A stretch of 32,000 bases of DNA from Candidatus Moranella endobia PCIT (lineage in GTDB: Bacteria > Pseudomonadota > Gammaproteobacteria > Enterobacterales > Enterobacteriaceae): NCBI RefSeq assembly GCF_000219175.1, contig NC_015735.1, positions 240,001-272,000 of the forward strand. The letters run 5' to 3'. The position numbers were made by a program, and so were the translations under genes. The notes below the pieces were generated by a model. It was not told the DNA's origin. It searched no databases and saw only the letters and a program-made list of their open reading frames with translations. Positions 11,075 through 32,000 of the stretch are shown piece by piece (within the stretch, counting starts at the first letter, position 1; the number at the start of each line of letters is the position of its first letter).

Positions 11075-11310
11075 GATAATTCCTTGCTACTTTCAAGCAG
11101 GATCAACCTGTGCCGCTTCAAACAAGATCCAAGAGAATATAAAGAAAGGCACGATGAATAAATAAAACACAGGCTTTATTTATTATTAACTTTAAATAAT
11201 AATAAGTTGTTAGTTTCTGGAAGCAATCATAACTGTTTGAGGTAATGTATTGGATATAATTATTATATCTGATATACACAAAACTTGTTCCATAACACAT
11301 TCTAGCATGT

Positions 11311-11407
11311 TTAATAATGCCGTTTTGCAGCTAATCATTAATTAATTGGGGGGTAACCATTAATTAAACTTACACTCGTGGACTATATATAGTAATTATA
11401 TTATAAT
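11311..11407. repeat. Left copy of a perfect 97-bp inverted repeat (partner at 13348-13444)
   Basis: I reverse-complemented 11311-11407 by hand. It equals 13348-13444 at all 97 positions, and identity stops abruptly at both ends. It contains a G6 run and an AT-only sub-hairpin (TTAATTAAT ... ATTAATTAA). Confidence 0.95.
11379..11407 (+). promoter_or_regulatory. Candidate sigma70 promoter for tRNA-Leu(CAA), lying wholly inside the inner end of the inverted repeat
   Basis: The motif is TGGACT-(17 nt)-TATAAT. The -10 hexamer forms the last 6 nt of the repeat and ends 11 nt before the tRNA 5' end. This is a motif match only. Confidence 0.35.
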
Positions 11408-11739: not shown

Positions 11740-12555
11740 TCAATCGGCTGATGCAGTTACGCTGGTATTGACCGATTTTGCAGCTAGCGTGTTCGACTCG
11801 CGGTGCAATTCCTGCATTATAAAATCAAGTCTGCGACCTACCGCTTCTGGTTTGTTCAAAATATGGTAGGTTTCTTTAACATGGGTATCGATGCGATCCA
11901 GTTCCTCGGCGATGTCTATCCGTTGCGCTAAAATCACCAATTCCTGCTCTATACGGTTACTATCCAACTTAACTTGGGCTTCCTGAAGTTTGTTCAGCAG
12001 CTTTTCGCGTTGCCAGACTAGTACTGTCGGCATCTGTTGGCGCACCTTGGCTGATTCTGCACTGACACCAGCTAATCGTTTTTCTATTAGTTTCTTAAGA
12101 GCCTTGCCTTCAGTTTCACGGGCGCTGATAAGGTCTTTGCAAGTCGCGTCCAACTCCAATAGTAATTCGGCGCTGATCGTGTCTAACTCCTGCTCGGTCG
12201 TGGACATGACGCCCGGCCATCGTAAAATTTCTAGTGGTTCGATTGTACCTTCTTCTTGGCTTTGTATTTTAACCCACTTAGCGGCTGCAATCACTTGTTT
12301 TGCAAGTGTTTTATTGATGATTAAGGTACTTTGTACATTAGGATTAACGTAAAAGTACAGATTACATTCCACTTTGCCTCGAGTAAGACACAAGCGTATA
12401 CGTTCACGAATAGCTTGCTCCAGAAAAATCAATTGTTCTGGCAGACGTATGTAGGTTTCCAAATAGCGATGATTAATGGAACGTAGTTCCCAGGCGGCAT
12501 TGCCCCATATGCCTGTAATTTCACGCCGGGCAAAAGCAGTCATACTTCTAATCAT
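11740..12555 (-). CDS. yicC: YicC-family stress-induced protein/endoribonuclease, 3' end frameshifted (full-length frame would run to 11688)
   Basis: MIRSMTAFARREITGIWGNAAWELRSINHRYLETY... is collinear with E. coli YicC up to ...VTASA. One extra nucleotide near 11745 then shifts the frame. The conserved tail IELKVLTEQMREQIQNVE-stop is readable in the +1 frame down to 11688. Confidence 0.88.
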   Translation of the reverse strand: MIRSMTAFARREITGIWGNAAWELRSINHRYLETYIRLPEQLIFLEQAIRERIRLCLTRGKVECNLYFYVNPNVQSTLIINKTLAKQVIAAAKWVKIQSQEEGTIEPLEILRWPGVMSTTEQELDTISAELLLELDATCKDLISARETEGKALKKLIEKRLAGVSAESAKVRQQMPTVLVWQREKLLNKLQEAQVKLDSNRIEQELVILAQRIDIAEELDRIDTHVKETYHILNKPEAVGRRLDFIMQELHRESNTLAAKSVNTSVTASAD

Positions 12556-12679: not shown

Positions 12680-13359
12680 TCTTAGGCCCTCAGCAGAAAT
12701 AACCTATCGCAAGTACGACCGGTAATAATTACTAGCAATTTTATTCAACATACCGAAAATCGGTATTAATAGCATGTGGTAAAATGCGCGTACTATGTAC
12801 TGCGTCGGTGGATAAGGGTGTGCCGCCTTTAAAAAAGGCGGCAAGGGCTGGATTACTGCTTAATATGGTATGTTACCATGTGCAACCCATACTCGCAATA
12901 CCCGAGAAGCAGCGAAAGGCAAGCAAGGTTGCCAAACTATGGAAATAAAGCATCTTATCGCACGCTCGCTACGTGCTTGCTGCTGTAGATTTACACAAAA
13001 ATGGACGTATAGACAGCAATAATTGCTCAATTACCTGGACTTGCTTAGCGCTGGCTGATACCTTAACCAGCATAAAGAAAAAATCAGTTGAATATTAATC
13101 CGATGAGAGGATGCGGCGCAGCAATTTCGTTAGGTATAGTTGCTGGGGAAGCAGTGTGCGATTTGGAATATATAGACGATTGAGTAGCAGAAACTACTAT
13201 TAATGTAGTAATGTTTGAAGATGGTCGCTTGATCGAAGTGCAAGTGACTGCCGAATGTAAGCCTGTTAGTACACAAGAATTTATTGTTTTGCTGACCGCT
13301 GTGGTATTTATAGTCGGATAAAAGCACAAAAAGCAGCGCAGGCCGCGATTATAATATAA
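12680..13359 (+). pseudogene. rph: RNase PH pseudogene (multiple frameshifts and in-frame stops)
   Basis: Fragments in shifting frames match E. coli RNase PH in order: QVRPVIITSNF, SVLIACGKMRVLCTASVDKGVPPLKK, GWITA[26 protein letters not shown], [14 protein letters not shown], and the C-terminal KAQKAAQAA. It is divergent from yicC, as in E. coli. Confidence 0.88.
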
Positions 13360-13444
13360 TTACTATATATAGTCCACGAGTGTAAGTTTAATTAATGGTT
13401 ACCCCCCAATTAATTAATGATTAGCTGCAAAACGGCATTATTAA
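13348..13444. repeat. Right copy of the perfect 97-bp inverted repeat (partner at 11311-11407)
   Basis: See the left copy. The inner end abuts the expected rph stop position, and the outer end stops 2 nt before the rsmH ATG. The outer part (GATTAGCTGCAAAAC...) may be a trace of the mraZ 3' end, but the similarity is weak. Confidence 0.95.
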
Positions 13445-13446
13445 CT

Positions 13447-14400
13447 ATGTCAGATAATTATTTACATACCACTGTTTTGCTAAATGAAGCGGTACATGGT
13501 TTAAACCTACGACCTGATGGCATCTATTTTGACGGAACCTTTGGGCGTGGCGGGCATTCGCGGTTAATTTTATCAAAGCTTAATGCACAAGGACGACTAT
13601 TTGCTATAGATTGTGATCCGGCGGCAATTGAAGCGGCACAGACCATCGATGATACACGTTTTACTATTGTCCATAAGCCTTTTTCCGCAATGCTGGATTA
13701 CATAGCAGAAAGAGATCTTGTTGGTCAAATTGACGGTATTTTGCTAGATCTAGGCGTCTCTTCGCCGCAAATCGACGATCCAGCACGTGGTTTTTCATTT
13801 ATGCGCGACGGACCACTGGATATGCGTATGGATAACACAAGCGGGCAGTCAGCCGCGCAGTGGCTAGCACAAGCGTCAGTGGACGAGATAAGCTGGGTTC
13901 TAAAGACCTTTGGCGAGGAGCGTTTCGCCAAACGCATAGCACAGGCAATCGTCGCAAGAAATCGCCAACGACCTCCTATAACACGGACTCTAGAACTAGC
14001 AGCCTTAATTACCAAGGCCATTCCGTTTCATGATAATCGTAAGCACCCTGCAACGCGCAGTTTCCAGGCGATTCGGATCTATATCAATTGCGAGCTAGAA
14101 GAGATCGAACGGGCTCTCAACTGCGCGTTGCAGGGGCTGGCCCCATACGGCAGATTAGCAGTTATAAGCTTCCATTCTATAGAGGATCGGTTGGTGAAAC
14201 AGTTTATCTATCAGCACAGCTACATACCGCAGGTGCCGGTGGGTATACCACTAACAGAAGCGCAAATATCCGCGCAATACCAGCATTGGCGCCAATTGAA
14301 AATTTTAGGGAAAATACATCCTTCGGCGCAAGAAATTACAGATAACCCACGTGCGCGTAGTTCGGTGCTAAGATTAGCAGAGAAATTGTCTAAAACATGA
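13447..14400 (+). CDS. rsmH: 16S rRNA (cytosine1402-N4)-methyltransferase
   Basis: [39 protein letters not shown]... is collinear with E. coli RsmH (MraW). ATG 13447 matches the ortholog start. The ORF-track start at 13417 lies inside the inverted repeat. Confidence 0.95.
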
Positions 14401-14666
14401 TCGATAGAAAACATTATCACTTAGTTGGAAGCATAGGTAAAGATATATTAAATAATGGCAAACTGCCCGCGCTATTACTGATTGCGGTTCTCGCCTCATC
14501 GAGCTTGGTAGTTATAACCACCTACCAAACCAGGCGGCTAACAGTTGAACGTGAGCAACTGCTTCTAGAACAGAATATATTAGATATCGAGTGGCGTAAC
14601 CTGATCCTAGAAGATAATGTTATTAGCGATCAAAGTCGCTTTGAGTTTGTCGCCACTGAGCAGTGA
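14397..14666 (+). CDS. ftsL: Cell division protein FtsL, shortened at both termini relative to E. coli (89 aa)
   Basis: [12 protein letters not shown]...[43 protein letters not shown] matches the FtsL TM and coiled-coil region. The start overlaps the rsmH stop, as in E. coli. A stop lies where E. coli continues KLQMQHVDPSQENIVVQK. Confidence 0.85.
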
Positions 14667-14935
14667 CCAAGACCATATTTAGATTAGTCGCAAGAAAAAT
14701 ATTGTGCTTCCACCTTAAGTGATCGTACTTTATCCGCTTTGATCGACCTTAGTCGCAGTCGCAAATACTGATTTATGACAAGTAGGCTGAAAAAAAATTG
14801 CTATTACTTACAGTTTAGTTATAAAAATAGCATTTGAAAGCAACCTATACTGCGATCTTTAGCGCTTGAATCTAATCATAAATTATTGGCAAAATAAGCA
14901 CAATTAGTCCGCAAACTGATAATAAATAGCGATAC

Positions 14936-16711
14936 ATGAAAGCCGCAGCATGCATGACCACTCTGAAACGCCAGGCGGCTAATAATACCAGACTTGGCGG
15001 TTGGCGTTTTACTGTTCTGTATAGTTGCATCCTACTAGCGTTGATCGGTATGACAATCAGGTTAGCCTATCTACATATCATTAATCACGATCAACTGGTA
15101 CGTGAAGGAGATATGCGCTCGCGGCGTGTGCAGCAAATTCCTACCATGCGTGGTATGATAAGCGACCGAGTCGGACGTCCTCTGGCAGTAAGCGTGCCAG
15201 TTCACGCTATCTGGGCAGATCCGCAACAGTTGACAAAATACTATAGCAGTATGAGCACAAACTTACGCTGGAAAGCGTTTTACGATGTGCTTTCTCTCTC
15301 TTATGATCAACTGTTATCGCGCATGCATACTAATTCTACAAGGCGCTTTGTCTATTTAGCGCGCCAAGTTAATCCTAATATTAGCGATTATATCCATAAA
15401 CTTAACCTGCCAGGTATTTATCTTCGACAGGAGTCACGTCGCTATTATCCCGCTGGTCATTCAACAGCGCATCTTCTTGGCGTGACCAATATTGATAGTC
15501 AGGGTATTGAAGGTATTGAAAAAAGTTTCGACAAGTGGCTAACCGGCCAACCCAACGAGCGAATGGTGCGCAAAGATCGTTTTGGCAAGATCATAGAGAA
15601 TATATCTTCGGTCGCCCGCCAGACCACGCATAATCTGTCGCTAAGTATTGACGAACAGCTGCAGGCATTGGTGTATCGTGAGCTTAATCAAGCCGTTGCA
15701 TGCAATCGTGCCGAATCTGGCACATCAGTTTTGGTGGATGTCAATACTGGCGAAGTGCTAGCAATGGCCATCAGTCCTTCTTACAACCCCAACAATTTAG
15801 TTGGCACCAACATGGATATAATGCGTAATCGTGCTATTACCGATAGTTTTGAGCCAGGTTCAACAGTAAAGCCAATGGTGGTCATGACAGCACTGCAGCG
15901 TAGATTAGTGGGGGAAAACAGCCTACTTAATACATTACCTTACATGATTAGTAGTCACCAAATTAAGGATGTAGCGCGCTATGCTGAATTGTCCATGACA
16001 GGAATTTTGCAGAAATCTAGTAACGTTGGTGTATCTAGGCTTGCGTTAGCAATGCCATCTTCGTCGCTAGCAGAAACTTACTCTCGCTTTGGATTGGGTA
16101 AAGCGACCCAGTTGGGGCTGATTGGGGAACGCAATGGCGGCTTATGTTCCCATAACCAACGTTGTTCTGACATGGACAGAGCGACTTTTTCTTACGGTTA
16201 CGGTCTAATGGCTACACCGTTACAATTAGCACGCGTATATACTATTATTGGCAGCATGGGTGTTTTACGCCCGCTGTCTATCACCAGGATAAATCCACCA
16301 GTGATAGGAGAGCGTGTGTTTCCGGCGTCGCTAGTACGTACGGTAGTACACATGATGGAAAGTGTGGCGCTACCAGGTGGATGTGGTAATAAAGCTACAA
16401 TCAATGGTTATCGTATCGCTATTAAAACTGGTACCACTAAAAAATTGGGGCTAAATGGCCATTATATCAATAAATATGTGGCCTATACCGCTGGGGTAGC
16501 GCCAGTTAGTAATCCGCGGTTTGCACTAGTGGTCGTTATAAATGATCCGCAGGGCGGCAAATACTACGGAGGAGCAGTTTCCGCGCCAGTATTTAGCACA
16601 ATTATGGGCAGCATTCTGCGGACAAAGCACATAGAACCAGATGCGCTGCGGAAACCTAGTAAAAAATTCGCCATAGTCGTAAAGACTAATACAAAAAAGA
16701 AGGTATTATAG
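14936..16711 (+). CDS. ftsI: Peptidoglycan D,D-transpeptidase FtsI (PBP3)
   Basis: The ORF is collinear with E. coli FtsI. The active-site motifs STVKP, SSN and KTGT are all present. Confidence 0.96.
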   Translation: MKAAACMTTLKRQAANNTRLGGWRFTVLYSCILLALIGMTIRLAYLHIINHDQLVREGDMRSRRVQQIPTMRGMISDRVGRPLAVSVPVHAIWADPQQLTKYYSSMSTNLRWKAFYDVLSLSYDQLLSRMHTNSTRRFVYLARQVNPNISDYIHKLNLPGIYLRQESRRYYPAGHSTAHLLGVTNIDSQGIEGIEKSFDKWLTGQPNERMVRKDRFGKIIENISSVARQTTHNLSLSIDEQLQALVYRELNQAVACNRAESGTSVLVDVNTGEVLAMAISPSYNPNNLVGTNMDIMRNRAITDSFEPGSTVKPMVVMTALQRRLVGENSLLNTLPYMISSHQIKDVARYAELSMTGILQKSSNVGVSRLALAMPSSSLAETYSRFGLGKATQLGLIGERNGGLCSHNQRCSDMDRATFSYGYGLMATPLQLARVYTIIGSMGVLRPLSITRINPPVIGERVFPASLVRTVVHMMESVALPGGCGNKATINGYRIAIKTGTTKKLGLNGHYINKYVAYTAGVAPVSNPRFALVVVINDPQGGKYYGGAVSAPVFSTIMGSILRTKHIEPDALRKPSKKFAIVVKTNTKKKVL

Positions 16712-16717
16712 GCATTT

Positions 16718-17547
16718 ATGTATGAACTTGAATAATTCGTAATCAGCTTGATGCCCACCATGGTTAAGATGGTTAAGCTAGAGCTAGCTATAATACTACT
16801 CAGGCATTGCCGCTGTCAGGGCACAAGCATAATGAATGACATTCGATAATAAGAGGAACCATTCAAAAGCAGCTATCGGCGCTGACTGGTATTTTATTAC
16901 GCATCCTTTAATCGACTCGTTTTGTACTTGTAACAAGACAAAACCACCCGCACCATCTGGATCATATCCACCCTAGTCAATACAATAATACCATCTGCAT
17001 ACCAAAATAAGTTCAGTACTTATTCTTATAAAGAAGATCACTGACCACAGTTGATCGTAGTGTATTGTTATTGGTCAATGACTAACTACTATCTATCATT
17101 CATTACCGCTTGCACGAAATAATCACTGGCTTTGTACAGGCTCTTAAATAAGCGACAGATAGTGCCTTAAGTCTTGAAGTATTTCACACATACAGTAAGT
17201 AGTAGTAGATCCTATTAAAATAGTTTAATGGATCTGATCGTGCTAAAGGTGGCTAGTTTTGCTAAAGATGCTACAGTAGTAGCAGGCCAGGCTAAGCCAT
17301 ACCACTCGCCAGTAAAATATGGCGCTTGTAGTTTATCTAACTAACCGTCCCCATTCTCCGGTAAAATAGCCAAGATCCAGTCTTAAGGCCAGGAGATAAC
17401 CGCTGTGATTCTACCCTACTCCCTACTGTCAGGTTTTCAGATGATCTGTAGTCTAACTAACCTGGTGAGAAAGAAGTGGCTAGAGAGTTAACGTAGTACC
17501 GCAATCGACAAGTGGTGCGCGAGTTACAGGAGAAAGCACCATGTTAG
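16718..17547 (+). pseudogene. Collapsed murE-murF remnant (about 0.83 kb where about 2.8 kb is expected)
   Basis: The position is syntenic, between ftsI and mraY. The 5' end shows weak nucleotide similarity to the murE start (TCGTAAT...). The 3' end reads [12 protein letters not shown]-stop, matching the MurF C-terminus (..VVRALQENGTC) and overlapping the mraY ATG. No long ORF lies between. Confidence 0.7.
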
Positions 17548-18623
17548 TATGGCTGAACGAATATTTGGTTCAATTTTATTCATGGTGTAACGTTTTTTCT
17601 AACCTTACGTTCCGTACAAGCAGCAGCTTACTGACTTCGTTGTTCCTATCACTGTGGATCGGACAACACCTGATTATCAGGCTACAAAAACTACAAATTG
17701 GGCAGGTAGTGCGAAATGAAGGACCTAAATCTCATTTTCGCAAACGCGGTACGCCAACCATGGGCGGATTGATGATTCTAACGTCGATCACTCTTGCGGT
17801 GATAATCTGGGCATATCAGGCTAACCCCTATGTATGGTGCGTGCTATTTGTTCTGGTGAGTTACGGCATAGTGGGATTTATCGACGACTATCGTAAAGTG
17901 GTGCGCAAAGACACTAAGGGACTTAGTGCACGCTGGAAGTATTTCTGGCAGTCGGTTATAGCACTGGCGGTGGCGTTCACCATATTAGCGGCTGGAACAG
18001 AAACAACGGTTACCCAGCCAATGGTGCCATATTTAAAACAGGTTTTACCCCAGCTCAGGCTGAGGTATATGCTTTTAACTTACTTCGTTATTGTCGGCAC
18101 TAGCAATGCCGTAAATTTAACCGACGGTCTGGACGGGCTTGCTATTATGCCTACTGTATTTGTTGCCGCAGGTTTAGCTATAGCAGCGTTAGCAACCGGT
18201 AACATAAATGTAGCTGGCTACCTGAACATTGCTTACGTTAGCTTAGCCGGAGAGTTGGTTGTAGTCTGTGCGGCTATTATCGGTGCCAGTCTAGGTTTTT
18301 TGTGGTTCAACGCATATCCCGCACAAGTATTTATGGGCGACGTCGGATCGCTGGCACTAGGTGGAGCACTAGGCACCATTGCTGTATTGCTACATAAGGA
18401 ATTTTTGTTGTTGATTATGGGTGGTGTGTTTGTTTTAGAAGCATTATCGGTCATTTTACAGGTAGTATCGATTAAATTACTCGGTCAGCGCATGTTACTT
18501 ATGGCTCCTATTCATCACCATTATGAATTGAAAGGATGGCCAGAGCCGCGCGTTATCGTGCGCTTATGGATTATGTCGCTGATATTAGTCCTTCTTGGAT
18601 TGGCAACGCTAAAAGTATGGTAA
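17541..18623 (+). CDS. mraY: Phospho-N-acetylmuramoyl-pentapeptide transferase
   Basis: [14 protein letters not shown]... is collinear with E. coli Mra[26 protein letters not shown] and PIHHHYE are present. GGAG lies 8 nt upstream of the ATG. Confidence 0.97.
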
Positions 18624-18625
18624 TC

Positions 18626-18949
18626 ATGCTGTACTATAATTTAAGTGAGTTAGTGTATGAACATTGCGGCGACAACTGGCTAAAAAACGCCCAAGCAAAC
18701 AACATTGTTAGAACGGAAGCGGTATTGTATGACAATAACGGTATTAAGTATCAGCTAATATCAATATCACTACGCATGAGATCTTAGCTGCTCTTAGTTG
18801 CTACAAAGCAACCACACCACATGGTGGTATTTATGGTTTGTATTAGATTGATGCGCATACTGCAATATGTCTAGAAGCATCAAAGCTCACTGATAAACTA
18901 GAGCAGTGTACATATGCACCATTTTCGCAATGTTAAAGTGCTAGTTTAG
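18626..18949 (+). pseudogene. murD: Probable murD remnant (421 bp gap where about 1.3 kb is expected)
   Basis: The position is syntenic, between mraY and ftsW. Protein similarity is very weak (M.YY at the start, F.N.K.L.-stop at the end versus FARLAKELG-stop). There are many stops in all frames. Confidence 0.5.
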
Positions 18950-19044
18950 ATTTTTATTACATTGCTTATGCAGTATCGGCTTAATAAGCGCATTATCGGG
19001 CTGGTATTAATTATCTATCTGGAGCAGTGGAGTGGGTATTAAGA

Positions 19045-20184
19045 ATGCACAAAACGGAGGCACAGACCTATTTACTATATGATCGTACGCTGCTATTGCT
19101 AACTATGGGACTAGTTGGTATAGGTTTGGTAATGGTTATCTCTACATCTATGCCCATTGGTGTGCGACTATCGGAAGATCCGTTTTATTTCGCTAGGCGC
19201 TATGCGTTTTACCTTGGTCTGGCTGTTGTACTGTCACTGGTCACTCTTGGAATACCGATGGCTAGTTGGCAGCGCGGCAGCTCATTAATCTTACTTATTA
19301 CCTTGATTATGCTGCTGTTAGTGCTCATTGCCGGCCAGTCAGTCAACGGCGCCGTTCGCTGGCTAGCACTCGGGCCGTGGCGTATCCAACCAGCAGAATT
19401 GTCCAAGCTAGCTTTATTTTGTTATTTAGCCAGTTATCTCGTACGCAAAGCAGAGGAAGTACGCACTAATTTCTGGGGTTTTTGCAAACCAATAGGAGTG
19501 ATGGTGCTGCTGGCTATATTACTGCTAGCGCAGCCAGATCTTGGAACAGTATTGGTGCTATTTATCACTACCCTGGCGATGCTATTCCTAGCTGAAGCTA
19601 AAATATGGCAATTTTTACCGATTATTGGTACCGGTATTTTAGCAGTTATGTTACTTATTATAGCAAAACCGTACCGTAGACGACGCGTAACATCATTCTT
19701 AAACCCATGGGATGATCCTTTTGGCAGAGGTTACCAACTTACTAACTCACTAATAGCGTTTGGTCGTGGCGAGTTGTGGGGGCAAGGTCTTGGCAATTCG
19801 ATACAAAAATTTGAATATCTAACTGAAGCCCATACCGACTTTATTTGCTCCATTTTAGGTGAAGAGTTAGGTTATTTCGGCGTGTTATTGGCGCTGCTGA
19901 TGGTATTTTTAGTGGCGTTTCGTGCTATGTCCATCGGCCGTAAAGCACTAGCAATCAACCAAATATTTTCGGGTTTTCTAGCATGTTCTATCGGAATTTG
20001 GTTTAGTTTCCAGACTATGGTCAATGTAGGCGCCGCCGCTGGAATGCTTCCCACTAAAGGTTTGACACTGCCATTTATCAGTTACGGTGGCTCTAGCATG
20101 CTCATTATGTTAACGGCAATTGTACTTCTGATTAGAATAGATTTTGAAACACGCCTGGCAAAATTACAAGCGTTTGTAAGGTGA
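19045..20184 (+). CDS. ftsW: Lipid II flippase / SEDS peptidoglycan polymerase FtsW
   Basis: [23 protein letters not shown]... is collinear with the short form of E. coli FtsW through [12 protein letters not shown]. The upstream region resembling the long-form N-terminus contains a stop. GGAG lies 12 nt upstream of ATG 19045. Confidence 0.94.
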
Positions 20185-20189
20185 CTACG

Positions 20190-21254
20190 ATGAAGAAAAA
20201 TAACATGCGGTTAATAGTGATGGCCGGGGGCACTGGCGGGCATGTGTTCCCAGGACTTTCGGTCGCTAATCACCTGATGGCACAGGGTTGGCAGGTTAGA
20301 TGGCTCGGTACGGCCGATCGCATCGAAGCCAGTTTGGTACCGAAGTACGGCATTGACATCGACTTCATCCGCATTGGCGGCCTACGTGGTAAGAGTATAA
20401 CAGCACAAATTATGGCACCGGCACACATCTTGCGTGCCTGGCTTCAAGCGCGGCGAATTATGTACGCCTGGAGGCCAAATGTGGTGTTAGGAATGGGTGG
20501 CTATGTTTCCGGACCAGGCGGTTTGGCTGCCTGGAGCTATGGCATCCCGGTGGTACTGCATGAACAGAATGGCATTGCCGGTTTAACTAACCGCGCCCTA
20601 GCAAAGATAGCGAGAAAAGTACTACAAGCTGTTCCCGGCGCATTCCCTCATGCTGATGTAGTGGGCAACCCGGTGCGACATACAGTAATAGCGCTACCGG
20701 AGCCAGAATTACGCTTTCGCGAACGCACTGGTCCTATTAGGGTCTTGGTGATAGGAGGTAGTCAAGGCGCTCAGTTACTGAATAAAACTATGCCAGCTGT
20801 CGCTGCCCGCTTAGCTGGTACCTTAACCATTTGGCATCAAGTTGGCAAAGGAGCGCTAACTGAAGTAAATCGGGTCTACGCTGCTACCGGACAGCAACAT
20901 AAAGTGGTGGAATTTATTGAAGACATAGCAACAGCCTATGCCTGGGCGGATATTGTGGTTTGTCGAGCTGGTGCACTGACGGTGAGCGAAATTGCTGTTG
21001 CCGGTTTACCAGCGTTATTGATCCCTTTTACTCATAAAGATCGTCAGCAGTATTGGAATGCTAGGCTGTTGGATAAGGCCGGCGCGGCGACAATTATCGA
21101 GCAGCCAGCTTTTACAGCCGAGCTAGTTAGCAACGTTCTAGCAGGCTTGGATCGTACTATGTTGCTGACCATGGCGCAGCGCGCCAGGACTGCGGCTATT
21201 ATTGACGCAACGGAGCGGGTTGCGCGCGAAGTGGTAGCTGCTGCGCACCACTAA
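20190..21254 (+). CDS. murG: UDP-GlcNAc:lipid I N-acetylglucosaminyltransferase
   Basis: [23 protein letters not shown]... is collinear with E. coli MurG. AGGTG lies 7 nt upstream of ATG 20190. Confidence 0.96.
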
Positions 21255-21278
21255 ACCTAAACATGACCATCGTAATTT

Positions 21279-21880
21279 ATGAATGAAGTGATCAAACAAC
21301 GTACTGTTAATATAACACCACTAGCTAAATTGCGAACTGTTGTTCTAAACATTAGAATTGGTGGTGCTGGTATGCGAGGGATCGCAGAATTACTAGTAAA
21401 CTAGTGATATCAAATTATTTGAGCAAATCCAGCACCGAACGCGATGACACAGCTATTGACTAATCTTGTCGTACAAATTTATTTTAACCATCGTCCGTAG
21501 AATCTCCACAATGCGAGTGTGGTGGTGTATAGCACACTATTACCTCGATAACCCAGATTTTGGCTGCTATTATTTGATCAACGTCAATGGTAAAACCGGC
21601 GAAGTAATATTGGTAGCAGTTTTCGGCCACCATCCCACCAAAGTGAAAGCAAAAAATTAAAGCAGCACGCGCCAACTGGCAGGACAGTCTGATACTTCGC
21701 TAACGTTCTGTCATGTGGGTGGTGTGAATCTGTTGATCATGCTGGAAGTTTCTTCTGTCGGCGAAGCAGCGATTCCTGGTGCCGACAGTTACTTGCGCTG
21801 TGCATAAGCATAACTATACGTTGACGTGGTAAGGGGAATACTATGCAAGTGCAGCAATAAGCATATAGGTCTTAACAGAC
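21279..21880 (+). pseudogene. murC: murC pseudogene with large internal deletion, stops and frameshifts
   Basis: Ordered fragments are TPLAKLRTVV..IGGAGMRGIAELLVN-stop, MTQLLTNL..IYFNHRP-stop, VNGKTGEVILVAVFGHHPTKV and LLIMLEVSSVGEAAIPGADSYLRCA-stop. They match E. coli MurC near residues 1-95 and from about 340 onward. The central part is missing. Confidence 0.85.
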
Positions 21881-21914
21881 AAGGATTTAGTGTGAAGCAG
21901 GGGCGCTTGCACCG

Positions 21915-22203
21915 AAAATTACTCGTAAACTAGCGGATAGTCGGTTGCTGCAGTACGCTGGAACGATGAGGTAAGTTATACATCTGTTGTTTGACGGAAG
22001 TGGCCATTTGTTCAACGTTCCAGCGTCACATAGCTTTGCACGTTCTAGAAGTTTATCCAGTTTGTCGTCTCCAGCAGACTAAGAACGATAAAACTATATC
22101 AGCTGCGTGCGCTATTAATCTGGCTTAGCCAGTGGTTGGGTGACGGTTGATATCGAGCCGACAAATTCATTAGCAACAGAAGTTGGTATAGGCATAACAA
22201 TAA
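21915..22203 (+). pseudogene. ftsQ: ftsQ remnant (3' part only); no ddlB remnant recognised between murC and ftsQ
   Basis: The fragments AAVRWNDE and LLFDGSGHLFNVP match FtsQ ..[29 protein letters not shown]...EVG matches ..SYVDLRYDSGAAVGW just before the ftsA ATG. Stops occur throughout. Confidence 0.65.
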
Positions 22204-23457
22204 ATGATCAAGATGATGGATAAAAAATTAGTAGTAGGATTGGAGATTGGCACAGTTAAAGTAGCCGTGCTAGTAGGTGAAGTACTTGCTGATGGTCTGA
22301 TGAATATTATCGGTGTCGGTAGTTGCCCATCTCGCGGCATGGACAAAGGTGGCGTTAAAGATTTGGAAGCAGTGGGAAAATGCGTGCAACAAGCTATCGA
22401 TCAAGCAGAACTGATGGCAAACTGCCATATTTCATCAGTGTATCTTGCTCTATCTGGCAAACAGATTAGCTGCCAAAATGAAATAGGTATAGTACCTATT
22501 TCCGCAGCAGAAGTAACGCAAGAAGATGTAGAAAATGTGGTGCATACTGCTAAATCCGTACGAGTACGCGACGAGCACCGTATATTGCATGTAATTCCAC
22601 AGGATTACGAGATTGATTACCAAGAAGGAATAAAAAACCCCGTTGGTTTGTCAGGAGTACGAATGCAAGCCAAAGTTCACCTGATTACCTGTCATCAGGA
22701 TATGGCCAATAACATTATTAAAGCAGTGGAAAGTTGTGGGCTAACAGTTGACCAATTAATCTTTGCCGGTTTAGCATCAAGCTATGCGGTATTGACAGAA
22801 GATGAACGTGAATTGGGTGTATGCTTCGTGGATATAGGCGGTGGCACTATGGACATAACTGTATATACAGCCGGCGCGCTCCGCCACACGCGCGTAATTC
22901 CCTACGCCGGTAACTTGGTTACTAACGACATTGCTTATGCCTTTGGCACGTTGCCAATCGACGCTGAAGCAATTAAGGTTAATTACGGCTGCGCGTTGGG
23001 ATCAGTTATCAATAATAACGAAAGCGTTGAAGTACCGAGTATCGGCGGACGACCGCCACGTAGCCTCCAGCGCCATACTCTGGCTGAGGTAATTGAGCCG
23101 CGTTATACCGAGCTGTTGAATCTAGTGAATGAGGAAATTTTGCAACTGCAGAGGCAGTTGCGTGCACAGGGAGTCAAGCACCATCTAGCAGCTGGCATTG
23201 TGCTTACCGGAGGTGCGGCGCAAATCGACGGCCTGGTAGACTGCGCACAGCAAGTATTCAATCATCAGGTGCGTATTGGCCAGCCGCTAAATATTAGCGG
23301 TATACCGAATTATGCGCAGGAGCCCTATTATTCGACTGCCATTGGGTTAATGCATTACGGTCAAGATTCATTAAATGGTAAATTGGAGATAGGAAAAAGA
23401 ACGTCGGTTAGCAAATGGTTTAAACGTTTCAGTGAATGGCTACGCAAAGAATTTTAA
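22204..23457 (+). CDS. ftsA: Cell division protein FtsA
   Basis: MIKMMDKKLVVGLEIGTVKVAVLVGEV... is collinear with E. coli FtsA, including the C-terminal amphipathic helix ...WFKRFSEWLRKEF. Confidence 0.97.
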   Translation: MIKMMDKKLVVGLEIGTVKVAVLVGEVLADGLMNIIGVGSCPSRGMDKGGVKDLEAVGKCVQQAIDQAELMANCHISSVYLALSGKQISCQNEIGIVPISAAEVTQEDVENVVHTAKSVRVRDEHRILHVIPQDYEIDYQEGIKNPVGLSGVRMQAKVHLITCHQDMANNIIKAVESCGLTVDQLIFAGLASSYAVLTEDERELGVCFVDIGGGTMDITVYTAGALRHTRVIPYAGNLVTNDIAYAFGTLPIDAEAIKVNYGCALGSVINNNESVEVPSIGGRPPRSLQRHTLAEVIEPRYTELLNLVNEEILQLQRQLRAQGVKHHLAAGIVLTGGAAQIDGLVDCAQQVFNHQVRIGQPLNISGIPNYAQEPYYSTAIGLMHYGQDSLNGKLEIGKRTSVSKWFKRFSEWLRKEF

Positions 23458-23535
23458 TGATGGTCAAATAATACAATACTAAAACAAGCTGATCTGAAAC
23501 GCTTACGAAGCGCCCGGTCCAACATGGAGAAAATT

Positions 23536-24705
23536 ATGTTTGAACATTTGGAATTAACTAACGATGCTGTTATTAAAGTAATTGGCATCGGAGGTGGCGG
23601 CAGCAACGCTGTCGAGCATATGGTACGCCAGCATATCGAAGGTGTTTGCTTCTTCGCAGTAAATACCGATGCACAAGCATTGCGTCAGACAACTGTTAGC
23701 CAGACCATTCAGATTGGCAGTGGTATTACTAAAGGATTAGGGGCAGGCGCGAATCCCGAAGTTGGCCGCCACTCAGCAGAAGAAGACCGTGAAAAACTTA
23801 GTGATGCCATTGAAGGCGCTGACATGGTGTTTATCGCCGCTGGTATGGGTGGGGGGACCGGTACGGGAGCAGCGCCGGTGGTTGCTGAAGTTGCAAAGGA
23901 TCTGGGTATTCTTACTGTGGCAGTAATAACTAAGCCGTTTCACTTTGAAGGTAAAAAACGTATGGTGTTAGCAGAGCAAGGAATTGATGCCCTCTCTAAG
24001 CATGTTGACTCGCTTATCACTATTCCTAATGATAAGCTGCTGAAAGTCCTGGGTCGCGGTATTTCGCTGCTGGACGCATTCGGCGCTGCCAATGACGTAC
24101 TAAAAGGAGCAGTACAGGGTATTGCTGGGCTTATCACTCGTCCTGGCTTGATGAACGTCGACTTTGCTGACGTTCGTACCGTCATGTCGGAAATGGGCTA
24201 CGCCATAATGGGTTCAGGCGGGGCTTGCGGAGAAGATCGCGCCGAAGAAGCTGCTGACATGGCAATTTCTAGCCCACTGCTGGAAGATATTGATCTATCA
24301 GGCGCTAGAGGAGTCTTGGTGAATATTACTGCCGGCTTCGATCTACGGCTGGAAGAATTTGAGACCGTTGGTAACACTATTCGCGCTTTCGCTTCTGATA
24401 ACGCCACAGTGGTAATAGGTACATCGCTAGATACGGATATGAACAACGAACTTCGCGTTACCGTCGTCGTGACCGGAATCGGCATGGATAACAACTCGGA
24501 CATGACGTTATTAACCAAATTAACCAATAAGCAAAGTAGAAATTCTATCTTAGATAAAAACTACTACGTTCATCCGATAGGTACGTCTTCTATCGCTCAA
24601 AAAAAACAAACATTATCTAATGCGGTCAATGAACAACACTCCCATGGGACGAAAGAACCTGACTATTTGGATATTCCCGCTTTTCTTCGTAAACCGGCAG
24701 ATTAG
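23536..24705 (+). CDS. ftsZ: Cell division GTPase FtsZ
   Basis: MFEHLELTNDAVIKVIGIGGGGSNAVEHM..GGGTGTGAAPV.. and the C-terminal DYLDIPAFLRKPAD are present. GGAGA lies 5 nt upstream of ATG 23536. The ORF-track start at 23524 adds 4 residues that are not conserved. Confidence 0.97.
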   Translation: MFEHLELTNDAVIKVIGIGGGGSNAVEHMVRQHIEGVCFFAVNTDAQALRQTTVSQTIQIGSGITKGLGAGANPEVGRHSAEEDREKLSDAIEGADMVFIAAGMGGGTGTGAAPVVAEVAKDLGILTVAVITKPFHFEGKKRMVLAEQGIDALSKHVDSLITIPNDKLLKVLGRGISLLDAFGAANDVLKGAVQGIAGLITRPGLMNVDFADVRTVMSEMGYAIMGSGGACGEDRAEEAADMAISSPLLEDIDLSGARGVLVNITAGFDLRLEEFETVGNTIRAFASDNATVVIGTSLDTDMNNELRVTVVVTGIGMDNNSDMTLLTKLTNKQSRNSILDKNYYVHPIGTSSIAQKKQTLSNAVNEQHSHGTKEPDYLDIPAFLRKPAD

Positions 24706-24717
24706 CTCGTTTCAGTA

Positions 24718-25623
24718 GTGATTAAACAGCGCACATTAAAACGTATTGTGCAAGCCACCGGTGTGGGGTTACACACTGGTAAAAAAGTCATCCTGACACT
24801 ACTTCCTGCATCTGCAAATACTGGTGTTATCTATCGTCGAATCGATTTAAACCCACCAGTAGATTTTCTTGCAGACGCACGATTGGTGCGCGAAACTACG
24901 CTGTGCACCTGTTTGGTGAACGAGCATAATGTGTGTATTTCAACCGTTGAGCACTTGAACGCAGCGCTAGCCGGGTTAGGAATCGACAATATCATTGTTG
25001 AAGTAGATGCGCCGGAAATTCCAATCATGGACGGCAGCGCTAGCCCCTTCGTTTGTTTACTACTAGATGTTGGCATTGAGGAGCTAAATTGCGCCAAAAA
25101 GTTTTGGCGGATAAAAAAGCCGGTGCGTGTCGATAATGGGGAAAAATGGGCTCAGCTGACGCCGTATAATGGCTTTACACTAGATTTTACCATCGATTTC
25201 CAACATCCTGTGATTAATGCCAGCTCGCAAAATTATTTTCTAAATTTCTCCACCTATTCTTTCATTCTTCAGATAAGCCGCGCGCGCACTTTCGGTTTTA
25301 TGCGCGATATCGAGTACCTGCAATCTATTGGCCTAGCACTAGGTGGTAGCTTCGATTGCGCGATTGTGGTCGATGAATACCGGGTGCTAAATGATGATGG
25401 TCTGCGCTTTGACGATGAATTTGTGCGTCATAAAATGCTCGATGCCATCGGTGACCTGTTTATGTGTGGCCATAATATCATTGGCGCATTTACCGCCTTC
25501 AAGTCTGGCCATGCTATGAATAACAAGCTGTTACAGGCAGTTTTTGCGAGTAAAGATAACAGTGAACTAGTGACCTTCGAGAACGAGGAGGCATTGCCGA
25601 TGAAGTTCAACTTGACTTACTGA
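24718..25623 (+). CDS. lpxC: UDP-3-O-acyl-GlcNAc deacetylase (GTG start)
   Basis: (V/M)[23 protein letters not shown]... is collinear with E. coli LpxC. The zinc and catalytic residues are in place ([30 protein letters not shown]). Confidence 0.96.
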
Positions 25624-29126: not shown

Positions 29127-32000
29127 CTAGGCAGAAATATTGCCTTCTGACGTTTCATCAGAGGTGTCTGTCTTACCTGACATCCGTGCTAGAAACTCAT
29201 ATTTTTGCTGTAATTCTTTTTCCGTCGATTTATGCAAAGTGGCAGCGATGTCCGGCTGTTTAATATTAAGTAGGCGGAAACGCTGCTCGTTAAGCAGCGT
29301 AGCAGCAAGATTGCTTGAGGGCGGACGTGAATTTAGCATTAGTGGTAATTTTCCTTTATCCCTGAAACGGGGATCGAAGCGGTATAATGGCCAGAAGCCA
29401 GTGGCTGTAAGTTGTTGCATTTGAGTATGGCTAAGCGCAAGATCATAGCCATGCGCTTCGCAGGGGCTATAGGCGATAATCAAAGATGGTCCTGGATATG
29501 ATTCGGCTTCTTGAATGGCTTTTACAGTACCATTAAACTGTGCTCCTAAGGAAATTTGCGCTACATAAACATGACCATACATCATCATGCTAACGCCAAG
29601 ATCTTTGCTTGCCTTGCGTTTGCCTTGTTCACAGAATTTGGTAACTGCGCCTAGCGGTGTTGCTTTAGATTGTTGTCCACCAGAATTGGAATAACATTGA
29701 GTATCCAGCACTAGTACATTGACGTTTTCAGTCATGCTCATTACATGGTCCAGACCGCCAAAACCAATATCATATGCCCACCCGTCGCCTCCAATCAACC
29801 AGATAGATTTATCCACTAAATAATTAGCATCCTGCTTCAACTGACGTACAGAGGCATCATCCGAATTACCTAGCAGATCGCGTAATTCACTGATTTGCCG
29901 CCGTCGTTCTTCCACAGGTATATTGGAGGTACGCAACTCAGAAACAAGAGTTTCTGGCAGTAACCCTTTATGTATATCTAGCAGGCGCAATACTCGCCGG
30001 CGGTGCTGATCCAAAGTTAGGCGAAAGCCCAGGCCAAATTCAGCATTATCCTCAAACAAAGAATTAGCCCAGGCTGGCCCGCGGCCTTTTGCGTTTGTAG
30101 TATATGGTGTTGTTGGTAGGTTACCGCCATAGATAGAAGAGCAGCCGGTGGCATTAGCGATCAGTAAACGGTCCCCATAAAGCTGAGTTAGCAGCTTAAT
30201 ATATGGAGTTTCGCCACAACCCGAACAGGCGCCAGAGTATTCGAAAAGAGGGGTAATTAGTTGTGATGTGCGGAGATCAATTTTTGCCAGCATACGGGTA
30301 TCAATTTCAGGTAGGCTAAGAAAGAAATCATAATTGATTTTCTCTGTTTCTAAATGCGCTAGCCGCGATGCCATATTAATGGCTTTTATTTTAGGTTGTT
30401 GTCTATCTTTAGCTGGACATACTTCGACACACAACTGGCAGCCAGTACAGTCTTCTGGCGCAACTTGGAGTACATACTTATGGCCGCGCATATTGCGGGA
30501 TTTTACTTCTAGGCATGACATGCTTGGCGGCGCTTTATCTAATGTCTGCGGCGGAACGACTTTAGCGCGAATAGCGGCGTGGGGACAGGCAGCCACGCAA
30601 TAGTTGCACTGGGTACATAACGATGGTTCCCACAGTGGTATTTTTTCGGCGATATTGCGTTTTTCCCATTGCGTGGTGCTAATTGGCCAGCTTCCATCTG
30701 GTGGCAATGCTGAAACTGGCAGTGCGTCACCTAAACCTGCGAGCATAGCGGCGGTAACGAATTTGACAAAATTAGGCGCCGCTTCTGATACTACCGGTGG
30801 GCGCAAGTGACTTGCTGTTTCGACTGCTTTGAGCGGTACTTGAAATAAAGCATCGCTAGTCGCAGCTAGTGCCTGCCAATTAGACCTTATCAGTTCTTGT
30901 CCCTTACTACTGCTATAGTTTGTAACCACTGCTTGTCGCAGGGCACTTAACGTCTGATCCGGCGGTAAAATACCAGACAGCTGGAAGAAAGCCATTTGCA
31001 TAACAGTGTTAATACGTGTCTGAAGCTTATATTTGCTGGCTATCTGCTGGGCGTTGATTACATAAAAACGTGCCTTGCGCTCATTTAGTATTGCCTGCAC
31101 CTCTCTGGGGAGTAAAGACCAGATTTCGTTGGCATCTTTAGGTGTATTCATGAGGAAAATACCGCCGGTCCGCAGGTGTTCTACAATGTGATACTTTTCG
31201 ATAAATTGCGATTGGTGGCAACCAATAAAATCTGCCTGGCCAACTAAATAGGCCGCATGAATTGGTTTCTTGCTGACCCTAAGATGAGACACGGTTAATC
31301 CACCAGCTTTCTTTGAATCGTAAACAAAATAGCCCTGGGTGAAATGCGGCGTCATATTGCCGATGATCTTTATAGAGTTTTTGGTTGCCGAGACCGATCC
31401 ATCGCCGCCCAAACCGTAAAACAGTGCTTCCAAAAGGAAACTACGCGGCCGCGTTGCTTTGGTTAATGGCAACGAAAGATGGGTAACATCATCATAAATG
31501 CCGACAGTAAAACGCGGCCGCGGTGCTACCTGCGCTAACTCGTTAAATATCGCCAATACACACGGTGGATCGAACTCTTTGGAAGATAGACCAAATCGGC
31601 CGCCGATGGTCAGTGGTAGTTTATTTATTTCGCCCCGGCTGTAGGCTTCCGCTAGTGTAGTTGTAACTTCAAGATATAGCGGTTCCGCCTGTGCTCCTGG
31701 CTCCTTGGTTCGGTCTAGCACCGCAATAGATTTTACCGCTTGGGGCATAATTTCTAGCAGATGGCTAGCAGAAAATGGCCTGAACAGTCGTACTTTGATT
31801 AATCCTACTTTTTCACCGTTGGCTAGCAATGTATCAATAACTTCTTCACAGGTACCAGCAGCTGATCCCATAACGATAATTATACGATCGGCATGAAGAT
31901 GGCCATAATATTCAAAAGGCTTATAGTGCCTGCCGGTGGCAGTAGCGAAGGCATCCATTGCTTGCTCCATCTTGCGATAAGCATTGTTATACCATGGGTT
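29127..32000 (-). CDS. nifJ: Pyruvate:flavodoxin/ferredoxin oxidoreductase (YdbK/NifJ family), 5' end outside the window
   Basis: The ORF is collinear with E. coli YdbK from about residue 240 to the C-terminus. It has two 4Fe-4S motifs (CTQCNYCVAACPH, CTGCQLCVEVCPA) and the TPP region GGDGWAYDIGFGGLDH. The frame stays open through 32000 (..NPWYNNAYRKMEQAMDAF). Confidence 0.95.
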   Translation of the reverse strand, partial: NPWYNNAYRKMEQAMDAFATATGRHYKPFEYYGHLHADRIIIVMGSAAGTCEEVIDTLLANGEKVGLIKVRLFRPFSASHLLEIMPQAVKSIAVLDRTKEPGAQAEPLYLEVTTTLAEAYSRGEINKLPLTIGGRFGLSSKEFDPPCVLAIFNELAQVAPRPRFTVGIYDDVTHLSLPLTKATRPRSFLLEALFYGLGGDGSVSATKNSIKIIGNMTPHFTQGYFVYDSKKAGGLTVSHLRVSKKPIHAAYLVGQADFIGCHQSQFIEKYHIVEHLRTGGIFLMNTPKDANEIWSLLPREVQAILNERKARFYVINAQQIASKYKLQTRINTVMQMAFFQLSGILPPDQTLSALRQAVVTNYSSSKGQELIRSNWQALAATSDALFQVPLKAVETASHLRPPVVSEAAPNFVKFVTAAMLAGLGDALPVSALPPDGSWPISTTQWEKRNIAEKIPLWEPSLCTQCNYCVAACPHAAIRAKVVPPQTLDKAPPSMSCLEVKSRNMRGHKYVLQVAPEDCTGCQLCVEVCPAKDRQQPKIKAINMASRLAHLETEKINYDFFLSLPEIDTRMLAKIDLRTSQLITPLFEYSGACSGCGETPYIKLLTQLYGDRLLIANATGCSSIYGGNLPTTPYTTNAKGRGPAWANSLFEDNAEFGLGFRLTLDQHRRRVLRLLDIHKGLLPETLVSELRTSNIPVEERRRQISELRDLLGNSDDASVRQLKQDANYLVDKSIWLIGGDGWAYDIGFGGLDHVMSMTENVNVLVLDTQCYSNSGGQQSKATPLGAVTKFCEQGKRKASKDLGVSMMMYGHVYVAQISLGAQFNGTVKAIQEAESYPGPSLIIAYSPCEAHGYDLALSHTQMQQLTATGFWPLYRFDPRFRDKGKLPLMLNSRPPSSNLAATLLNEQRFRLLNIKQPDIAATLHKSTEKELQQKYEFLARMSGKTDTSDETSEGNISA

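Follow-up and report, generated by a model that had tools for sequence, protein, structure and literature searches.

How does a bacterium that has lost, from its division and cell wall (dcw) cluster, the genes for making the peptidoglycan precursor uridine diphosphate-N-acetylmuramic acid (UDP-MurNAc)-pentapeptide come to keep intact the genes that consume it? The question is raised by a 32,000-nucleotide (nt) stretch of the genome of Candidatus Moranella endobia PCIT (NC_015735.1, positions 240,001-272,000; hereafter the window, in whose numbering all positions are given), which carries the dcw cluster of this organism. Moranella endobia is a gammaproteobacterium living inside Tremblaya princeps, which itself occupies bacteriocytes of Planococcus citri, the citrus mealybug. 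The loss of the soluble steps of the pathway at this cluster and their complementation by the host are real and already known: they were published in 2013, and an experimental demonstration followed in 2019. With a probability of roughly 0.93, the published mosaic pathway of Moranella and P. citri explains the locus. What is added here beyond the papers is descriptive: the traces left by the lost genes, the remaining length of each interval, and the present content of the region upstream of rsmH.

The retained genes were scored against NCBIfam equivalog models with curated cut-offs and aligned globally with E. coli reference proteins taken from one dcw locus. All nine (rsmH, ftsL, ftsI, mraY, ftsW, murG, ftsA, ftsZ and lpxC) give full-length matches to their equivalog models, with scores over the curated cut-offs, by a wide margin for all but ftsL (Table 1), and the scores of mraY, murG, ftsW and ftsI are 1.3-2.4 times the cut-off. 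Protein identity to E. coli is 66-82%, with zero internal stops, and the order and orientation of the retained genes are colinear with E. coli from rsmH to lpxC. Among the MraY matches listed in genome contigs, the closest were those of Erwinia and Winslowiella (77-78%), and the matches were gammaproteobacterial throughout; neither Moranella nor Sodalis was among them, and the loci were used for building profiles only.

Alignment to E. coli showed that all of the catalytic and motif residues examined are conserved. FtsI keeps S307-T-V-K, S359-S-N and K494-T-G, while MraY keeps D115, D116, D267 and the H325-H326 motif, and FtsW keeps D297. In FtsZ, the GGGTGTG motif (G105-GGTGTG) and the T7-loop residues N207, D209 and D212 are present, as are the zinc and catalytic residues H79, H238, D242 and H265 of LpxC. 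The start of ftsW is ambiguous, the candidates being 19006 (ATT, as in GenBank), 19027 (GTG) and 19045 (ATG). An earlier reading made from the sequence only had described all nine genes as full-length with their catalytic motifs. This description stands for rsmH, ftsI, mraY, ftsW, murG, ftsA, ftsZ and lpxC and does not stand for FtsL, which at 89 amino acids (aa) is short at both ends.

Genes kept in a decaying cluster might be no more than pseudogenes that decay more slowly than their neighbours, with no wall being made. The shortened ends of FtsL, the loss of ftsQ and mraZ, and the want of a strong consensus promoter directed towards rsmH would be in keeping with such a process. Nevertheless, the nine open reading frames (ORFs) run for about 9.6 kb without stops and with their catalytic residues kept, against 4-29 stops per frame in the 2.2 kb of DNA interleaved with them, and their products have retained the 66-82% identity to E. 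coli given above. Muropeptides, peripheral incorporation of D-Ala and a cefsulodin phenotype have moreover been published, and the legend to Figure 1B of the same paper gives the genes as present and expressed (PMC6838666). Slow decay of a silent cluster is therefore given virtually no credence. Constraint acts on the membrane and divisome genes that were kept, in contrast to the in-place decay of the genes beside them.

Three intervals of the cluster are decayed. Between the ftsI stop and the mraY ATG lie 829 bp, between the mraY stop and ftsW 382-421 bp according to the start chosen, and between the murG stop and the ftsA ATG 949 bp. The corresponding intervals of E. coli measure 2822 bp (murE-murF), 1396 bp (murD) and 3270 bp (murC-ddlB-ftsQ). 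Each forward frame of the gaps contains 4-29 stops. Their G+C content is 0.34-0.43 versus 0.44-0.53 for most of the neighbouring genes, the one gene that overlaps the range of the gaps being the shortened ftsL (0.415). The sequence-only reading gave the first and the last of the three distances exactly, and its value of 421 bp for the middle one holds if ftsW starts at the 19045 ATG.

Remnants of the missing genes were sought in the gaps by tblastn with E. coli proteins, and by comparing six-frame gap fragments with profile hidden Markov models (HMMs), for each of which the dcw loci of 22-26 Enterobacterales were used. On single gap fragments these custom profiles and tblastn were more sensitive than NCBIfam, which detected no mur fragment in them (an rph fragment was detected). 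The clearest trace is that of murC. In the tblastn alignment two parts of it remain, in frames shifted against each other: residues 1-88 (E = 1.5e-17, 51% identity) and residues 329-426 (E = 7e-10), residues ~89-328 having been deleted. A single faint piece of murD, residues 305-332, was located at 18647-18727 (tblastn with residues 305-331, E = 0.008; profile HMM, E = 0.001). Three colinear pieces of ftsQ (residues 139-156, 225-244 and 252-268) lie just upstream of ftsA, each of them individually insignificant in the profile HMM search (E ~0.1). The 3'-terminal 12 codons of murF may persist as a marginal trace (17509-17544, E = 0.36) that overlaps the ribosome-binding region of mraY. Neither tblastn nor the profile HMMs found any trace of murE or ddlB in the gaps, or any signal of mraZ upstream of rsmH, where its absence had been noted from the sequence.

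Seven of the 16 canonical dcw genes are accordingly missing or decayed (mraZ, murE, murF, murD, murC, ddlB and ftsQ). Among the lost genes murC is the only clear pseudogene, and the rest is featureless spacer. All of them had been pictured as stop-riddled stubs; the gaps are indeed filled with stops and murC fits the picture, but most of the genes are eroded past recognition. Loss of the mur genes and ddlB, ftsQ and mraZ proceeded through large deletions and frameshifts, and non-coding spacer now makes up about 29% of the length that the intervals had ancestrally. Taken with the equivalog scores of the retained genes, the tblastn and profile HMM results bear out the claim that the enzymes consuming UDP-MurNAc-pentapeptide are still encoded, intact, at the locus and that its makers, whose genes are decayed, have been lost, so that the makers have to be provided from outside the locus.

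Short gaps might also result from a collapse in the assembly, or the ligase genes might have moved elsewhere in the Moranella genome. To weigh this, the window was compared with the genome of M. endobia PCVAL, which was sequenced separately. Positions 7541-28623 align with CP003881.1 over 21,083 bp as a single colinear block with 99.943% identity, interrupted by 10 substitutions and 2 single-base indels, and the MraY and RsmH proteins are identical. CP003881 is the record of M. endobia PCVAL, for which 262 substitutions genome-wide relative to PCIT (CP002243), or ~0.05%, have been reported (PMC3620526); the 10 substitutions in 21 kb found here agree with this rate. Despite the 12 differences, the lengths of all three gaps are identical in the window and in PCVAL. 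Since the two sequences were produced independently, this agreement rules out assembly collapse. The murC remnant, with its internal deletion and its frameshifts, still lies where murC stood ancestrally, a sign that it decayed in situ, and loss of the soluble steps from the Moranella genome is stated in three papers (PMC6838666, PMC8331144, PMC12176269). Nothing in the window speaks for collapse or relocation, and the chance that either accounts for the gaps is negligible.

The differences between the strains are not spread evenly. Six of the 12 are in non-coding DNA, which makes up 21.6% of the sequence (P = 0.028). The 12-kb dcw region contains three substitutions relative to PCVAL, of which two (21290 and 21598) are in the murC remnant, where they would fit relaxed constraint. 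One substitution was found in secA. In addition, a 1-bp insertion relative to PCVAL at position 11746 causes a frameshift near the 3' end of yicC, so that the product has 271 aa compared with 288 aa in PCVAL. Either the strains truly differ here or one of the records contains a sequencing error.

Given that the gaps are genuine, their lengths relative to E. coli can be compared with each other. The three ratios of remnant to E. coli interval length are 0.294 (16712-17540), 0.289 (18624-19026) and 0.290 (21255-22203). Such equal shrinkage might mean that selection on the soluble Mur and Ddl genes was lifted more or less simultaneously, as a single step, when import of the host enzymes had become possible. 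If this were true, remnant length could serve as a rough clock for dating the hand-over against other pseudogenes; by comparison, the rph pseudogene retains ~93% of its length. Nevertheless, murC has decayed by few large deletions, so the equality of the three fractions may be due to chance, and a single step is considered doubtful.

The absent steps have a known source. Husnik et al. (Cell, 2013) reportedly found the soluble enzymes of precursor synthesis to be lost from Moranella and transferred genes to be carried by the host. Bublitz et al. (Cell, 2019) likewise describe the loss of the soluble precursor enzymes from Moranella and note that every gene retained is associated with the membrane or the periplasm (PMC6838666). 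The split between the soluble and membrane halves of the pathway, which was also apparent from the sequence, is stated explicitly in that paper. According to a further report, transferred genes of Planococcus citri encode the soluble enzymes lost from Moranella, and the last steps are Moranella-encoded (PMC12176269); loss of the soluble steps from the Moranella genome is also stated elsewhere (PMC8331144). The nuclear genome of P. citri carries transferred murA-F and ddlB (PMC5664097), and the transferred host genes are expressed (Figure 1B legend, PMC6838666).

Functional evidence comes from the 2019 study (PMC6838666). Muropeptides were detected by liquid chromatography-tandem mass spectrometry, and a peptidoglycan layer was observed at the Moranella periphery. 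Incorporation of D-Ala, followed by nanoscale secondary ion mass spectrometry and click chemistry, was found only at this periphery, and cefsulodin caused the Moranella periplasm to widen. In the case of murF, which is present as a host gene only, anti-MurF staining was observed in the cytoplasm of Moranella and none in Tremblaya. The checks proposed in the sequence-only reading (genome searches, expression, D-amino-acid labelling, muropeptide mass spectrometry and immunolocalisation) are hence already published for Moranella. Its comparison with the mealybug/Moranella mosaic pathway was well founded, and the alternative that it left standing, an independent case, falls away: the organism and the locus are the same, with 99.943% identity to PCVAL.

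The pathway is therefore envisaged as follows. The soluble steps would be provided by bacterial genes horizontally transferred to the insect nucleus, murA-F and ddlB according to the literature, and the proteins made from the transferred genes would be imported into the Moranella cytoplasm. In the literature this is demonstrated directly for MurF only; import of the other Mur enzymes we infer. The precursor would be made inside the symbiont and then handed to the symbiont-encoded membrane enzymes. The membrane and periplasmic steps have been retained under purifying selection, for formation of lipid I (MraY) and lipid II (MurG), septal polymerisation and cross-linking (FtsW and FtsI), and the divisome (FtsA, FtsZ and FtsL). 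The function of the wall is likewise a matter of inference, and the authors suggest that it may allow the host to control symbiont division.

Several points weigh against this explanation. The genome-wide absence of the ligases and the existence of the host copies are known here second-hand, from the literature. Import has been demonstrated for MurF alone, and import of mRNA instead of protein is formally possible according to the authors (PMC6838666). Furthermore, none of the partners has alr or murI, which bears on the sources of D-Ala and D-Glu (PMC6838666).

The main mechanistic alternative is that the precursor is imported and not the enzymes. UDP-MurNAc-pentapeptide would then be put together by the transferred Mur enzymes in the cytoplasm of the insect and carried across five membranes to MraY. 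The locus itself is compatible with this, as it shows only that the substrate cannot be made there and not where it is made. To our knowledge, there is no known transporter for a UDP-linked muropeptide. Precursor import is called formally possible in PMC6838666, but the MurF staining that fills the Moranella cytoplasm is absent from Tremblaya, and the authors judge such import unlikely. The localisation of MurF argues against it, the other steps being less constrained, and precursor import is regarded as a very improbable account of the locus. Enzyme import into Moranella, as published, remains the preferred explanation.

Trimming of the divisome accompanies the loss of the soluble steps. Compared with E. 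coli, FtsL is without 15 N-terminal and 17 C-terminal residues. Its stop follows the position that corresponds to E. coli residue 104, and by tblastn the homology runs on beyond the stop to residue 115. The shortening of FtsL has already been recorded, and ftsB, which lies outside the window, is listed (as ygbQ) as shortened in Moranella (PMC3620526). Loss of the C-terminal tail of FtsL coincides with the loss of ftsQ. As a minor reading, the two may have been lost together in a co-adapted trimming of the FtsQLB complex. With ftsZ, ftsA, ftsL, ftsW and ftsI present and ftsQ absent, the locus encodes a reduced, FtsQ-less divisome. The same set is found in Buchnera of Aphidinae aphids (PMC10591338), so the loss of ftsQ in Moranella is not special. 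Neither simultaneous loss of the soluble genes nor trimming of FtsL alters what the system is. About 220 bp of unexplained AT-rich DNA (G+C 0.34) separate ftsL and ftsI, where the E. coli spacer is 15 bp.

Upstream of rsmH the sequence has been remodelled. The position of mraZ and of the promoter is taken by an rph (RNase PH) pseudogene, which looks much younger than the mur remnants because ~93% of its length is kept. An inverted repeat encloses a 1.94-kb segment with tRNA-Leu(caa), yicC and the rph pseudogene. Its right arm abuts the rsmH start codon and takes it in, while the left arm stops 12 nt short of tRNA-Leu(caa) and carries a promoter-like TGGACT-17-TATAAT. Tremblaya has a 7-kb segment that inverts. 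By analogy with it the 1.94-kb segment could be invertible, since Moranella retains recA; the orientation of the segment is the same in the window and in PCVAL.

The inverted repeat was considered as a source of the dcw promoter and rejected, its sole strong sigma-70-like site in the right arm facing away from rsmH. No convincing promoter facing rsmH was found in a scan that returned 44 sites in total, barely above the 35 +/- 4.7 of a shuffled control.

The remainder of the window (G+C ~0.44) was laid out from the ORF map and NCBIfam matches. It begins with polA, dusA, two tRNAs, glyQ and glyS, followed by cydB and cydA on the minus strand. Next come tRNA-Leu(caa), yicC on the minus strand and then the cluster from rsmH to lpxC, all on the plus strand. 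The window ends with a 161-aa ORF on the minus strand, secA and a pyruvate:flavodoxin oxidoreductase gene. The ORF of the latter (29127-31970) was considered as a truncated gene and rejected, as it runs off the end of the window. At gathering thresholds Rfam identified three tRNAs only, and the gaps were without any match.

The 161-aa ORF contains a DciA domain and lies where E. coli has secM, which was not detectable at the lpxC-secA position. It was initially regarded as an oddity. This was rejected, as the arrangement is the normal, ancestral one for Enterobacterales without DnaC (PMC5109545). The Moranella genome paper of 2013 was puzzled by the missing dnaC and dnaT; the presence of a DciA-type helicase loader explains their absence.

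Table 1. Coordinates of the dcw genes, their remnants and adjacent elements in the window.
Feature	Position	Strand	Evidence
rsmH (16S rRNA m4C1402 methyltransferase), intact	13447-14400	+	TIGR00006, 384.5 bits (cut-off 154); 66.5% identity to E. coli, 313 aa
ftsL, shortened, 89 aa	14397-14666	+	NF008040, 103 bits (cut-off 96)
ftsI (penicillin-binding protein 3 (PBP3), septal transpeptidase), intact	14936-16711	+	NF011685, 994.8 bits (cut-off 737); STVK, SSN and KTG kept
Non-coding remnant at the murE-murF place, 829 bp	16712-17540	+	12-29 stops per forward frame; G+C 0.41
mraY (phospho-MurNAc-pentapeptide translocase, makes lipid I), intact	17541-18623	+	TIGR00445, 454 bits (cut-off 192); 74% identity to E. 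coli
Non-coding remnant at the murD place, ~400 bp (about 403)	18624-19026	+	G+C 0.375; faint murD trace
ftsW (SEDS (shape, elongation, division and sporulation) septal glycosyltransferase), intact	19027-20184	+	NF008042, 677 bits (cut-off 493); 69.6% identity to E. coli
murG (lipid I to lipid II glycosyltransferase), intact	20190-21254	+	TIGR01133, 364 bits (cut-off 250); 71.5% identity to E. coli
murC pseudogene, frameshifted pieces (residues 14-87 and 329-426), ~240-codon internal deletion	21276-21804	+	tblastn E = 1.5e-17 and 7e-10; six colinear profile HMM pieces
Remnant at the place of the murC 3' end, ddlB and ftsQ	21805-22203	+	Marginal colinear ftsQ traces only, 21975-22208
ftsA, intact	22204-23457	+	NF007009, 796 bits (cut-off 409); 82.5% identity to E. 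coli
ftsZ, intact	23536-24705	+	TIGR00065, 451 bits (cut-off 295)
lpxC, intact	24718-25623	+	TIGR00325, 461 bits (cut-off 187)
DciA-domain ORF, 161 aa	25700-26185	-	PF05258, E = 1e-13; between lpxC and secA
rph (RNase PH) pseudogene at the mraZ and promoter position	12748-13300	+	Three fragments in different frames; TIGR01966 colinear positions 22-68, 62-100 and 182-218
Inverted repeat, 97-107 nt	left arm 11301-11407; right arm 13348-13454		97-nt core 100% identical; 107 nt at 96%

The locus can finally be set beside known systems. The canonical Enterobacterales cluster has the order mraZ-rsmH-ftsL-ftsI-murE-murF-mraY-murD-ftsW-murG-murC-ddlB-ftsQ-ftsA-ftsZ-lpxC, which Moranella keeps with the omission of the seven genes named above. 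It differs further in having the rph pseudogene and an arm of the inverted repeat in place of mraZ, and dciA, not secM, between lpxC and secA. With the mosaic pathway of P. citri and Moranella, in which the soluble Mur enzymes are lost and mraY, murG, ftsW and ftsI retained, both the organism and the locus are shared and there is no difference in substance. The published pattern of pathway splitting was recoverable from raw sequence alone.

Most Buchnera of Aphidinae aphids, unlike Moranella, keep their own murA-F (97% of genomes, Table 1 of PMC10591338). The transferred genes of aphids (amiD and ldcA) act in wall recycling and not in precursor synthesis. A likeness is also offered by the peptidoglycan of plastids and chromatophores, in moss chloroplasts and Paulinella, where nucleus-encoded Mur enzymes of bacterial origin are likewise targeted to a compartment derived from an endosymbiont and a role in division control has also been suggested (PMC6838666). 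Moss chloroplasts and the Paulinella chromatophore are organelles with established import machinery, unlike Moranella. The mealybug's transferred genes derive from bacteria that are not related to Moranella, and the proposed import crosses five membranes. An animal nucleus that supplies wall enzymes to a bacterium within a bacterium is a close parallel to the evolution of organelles.

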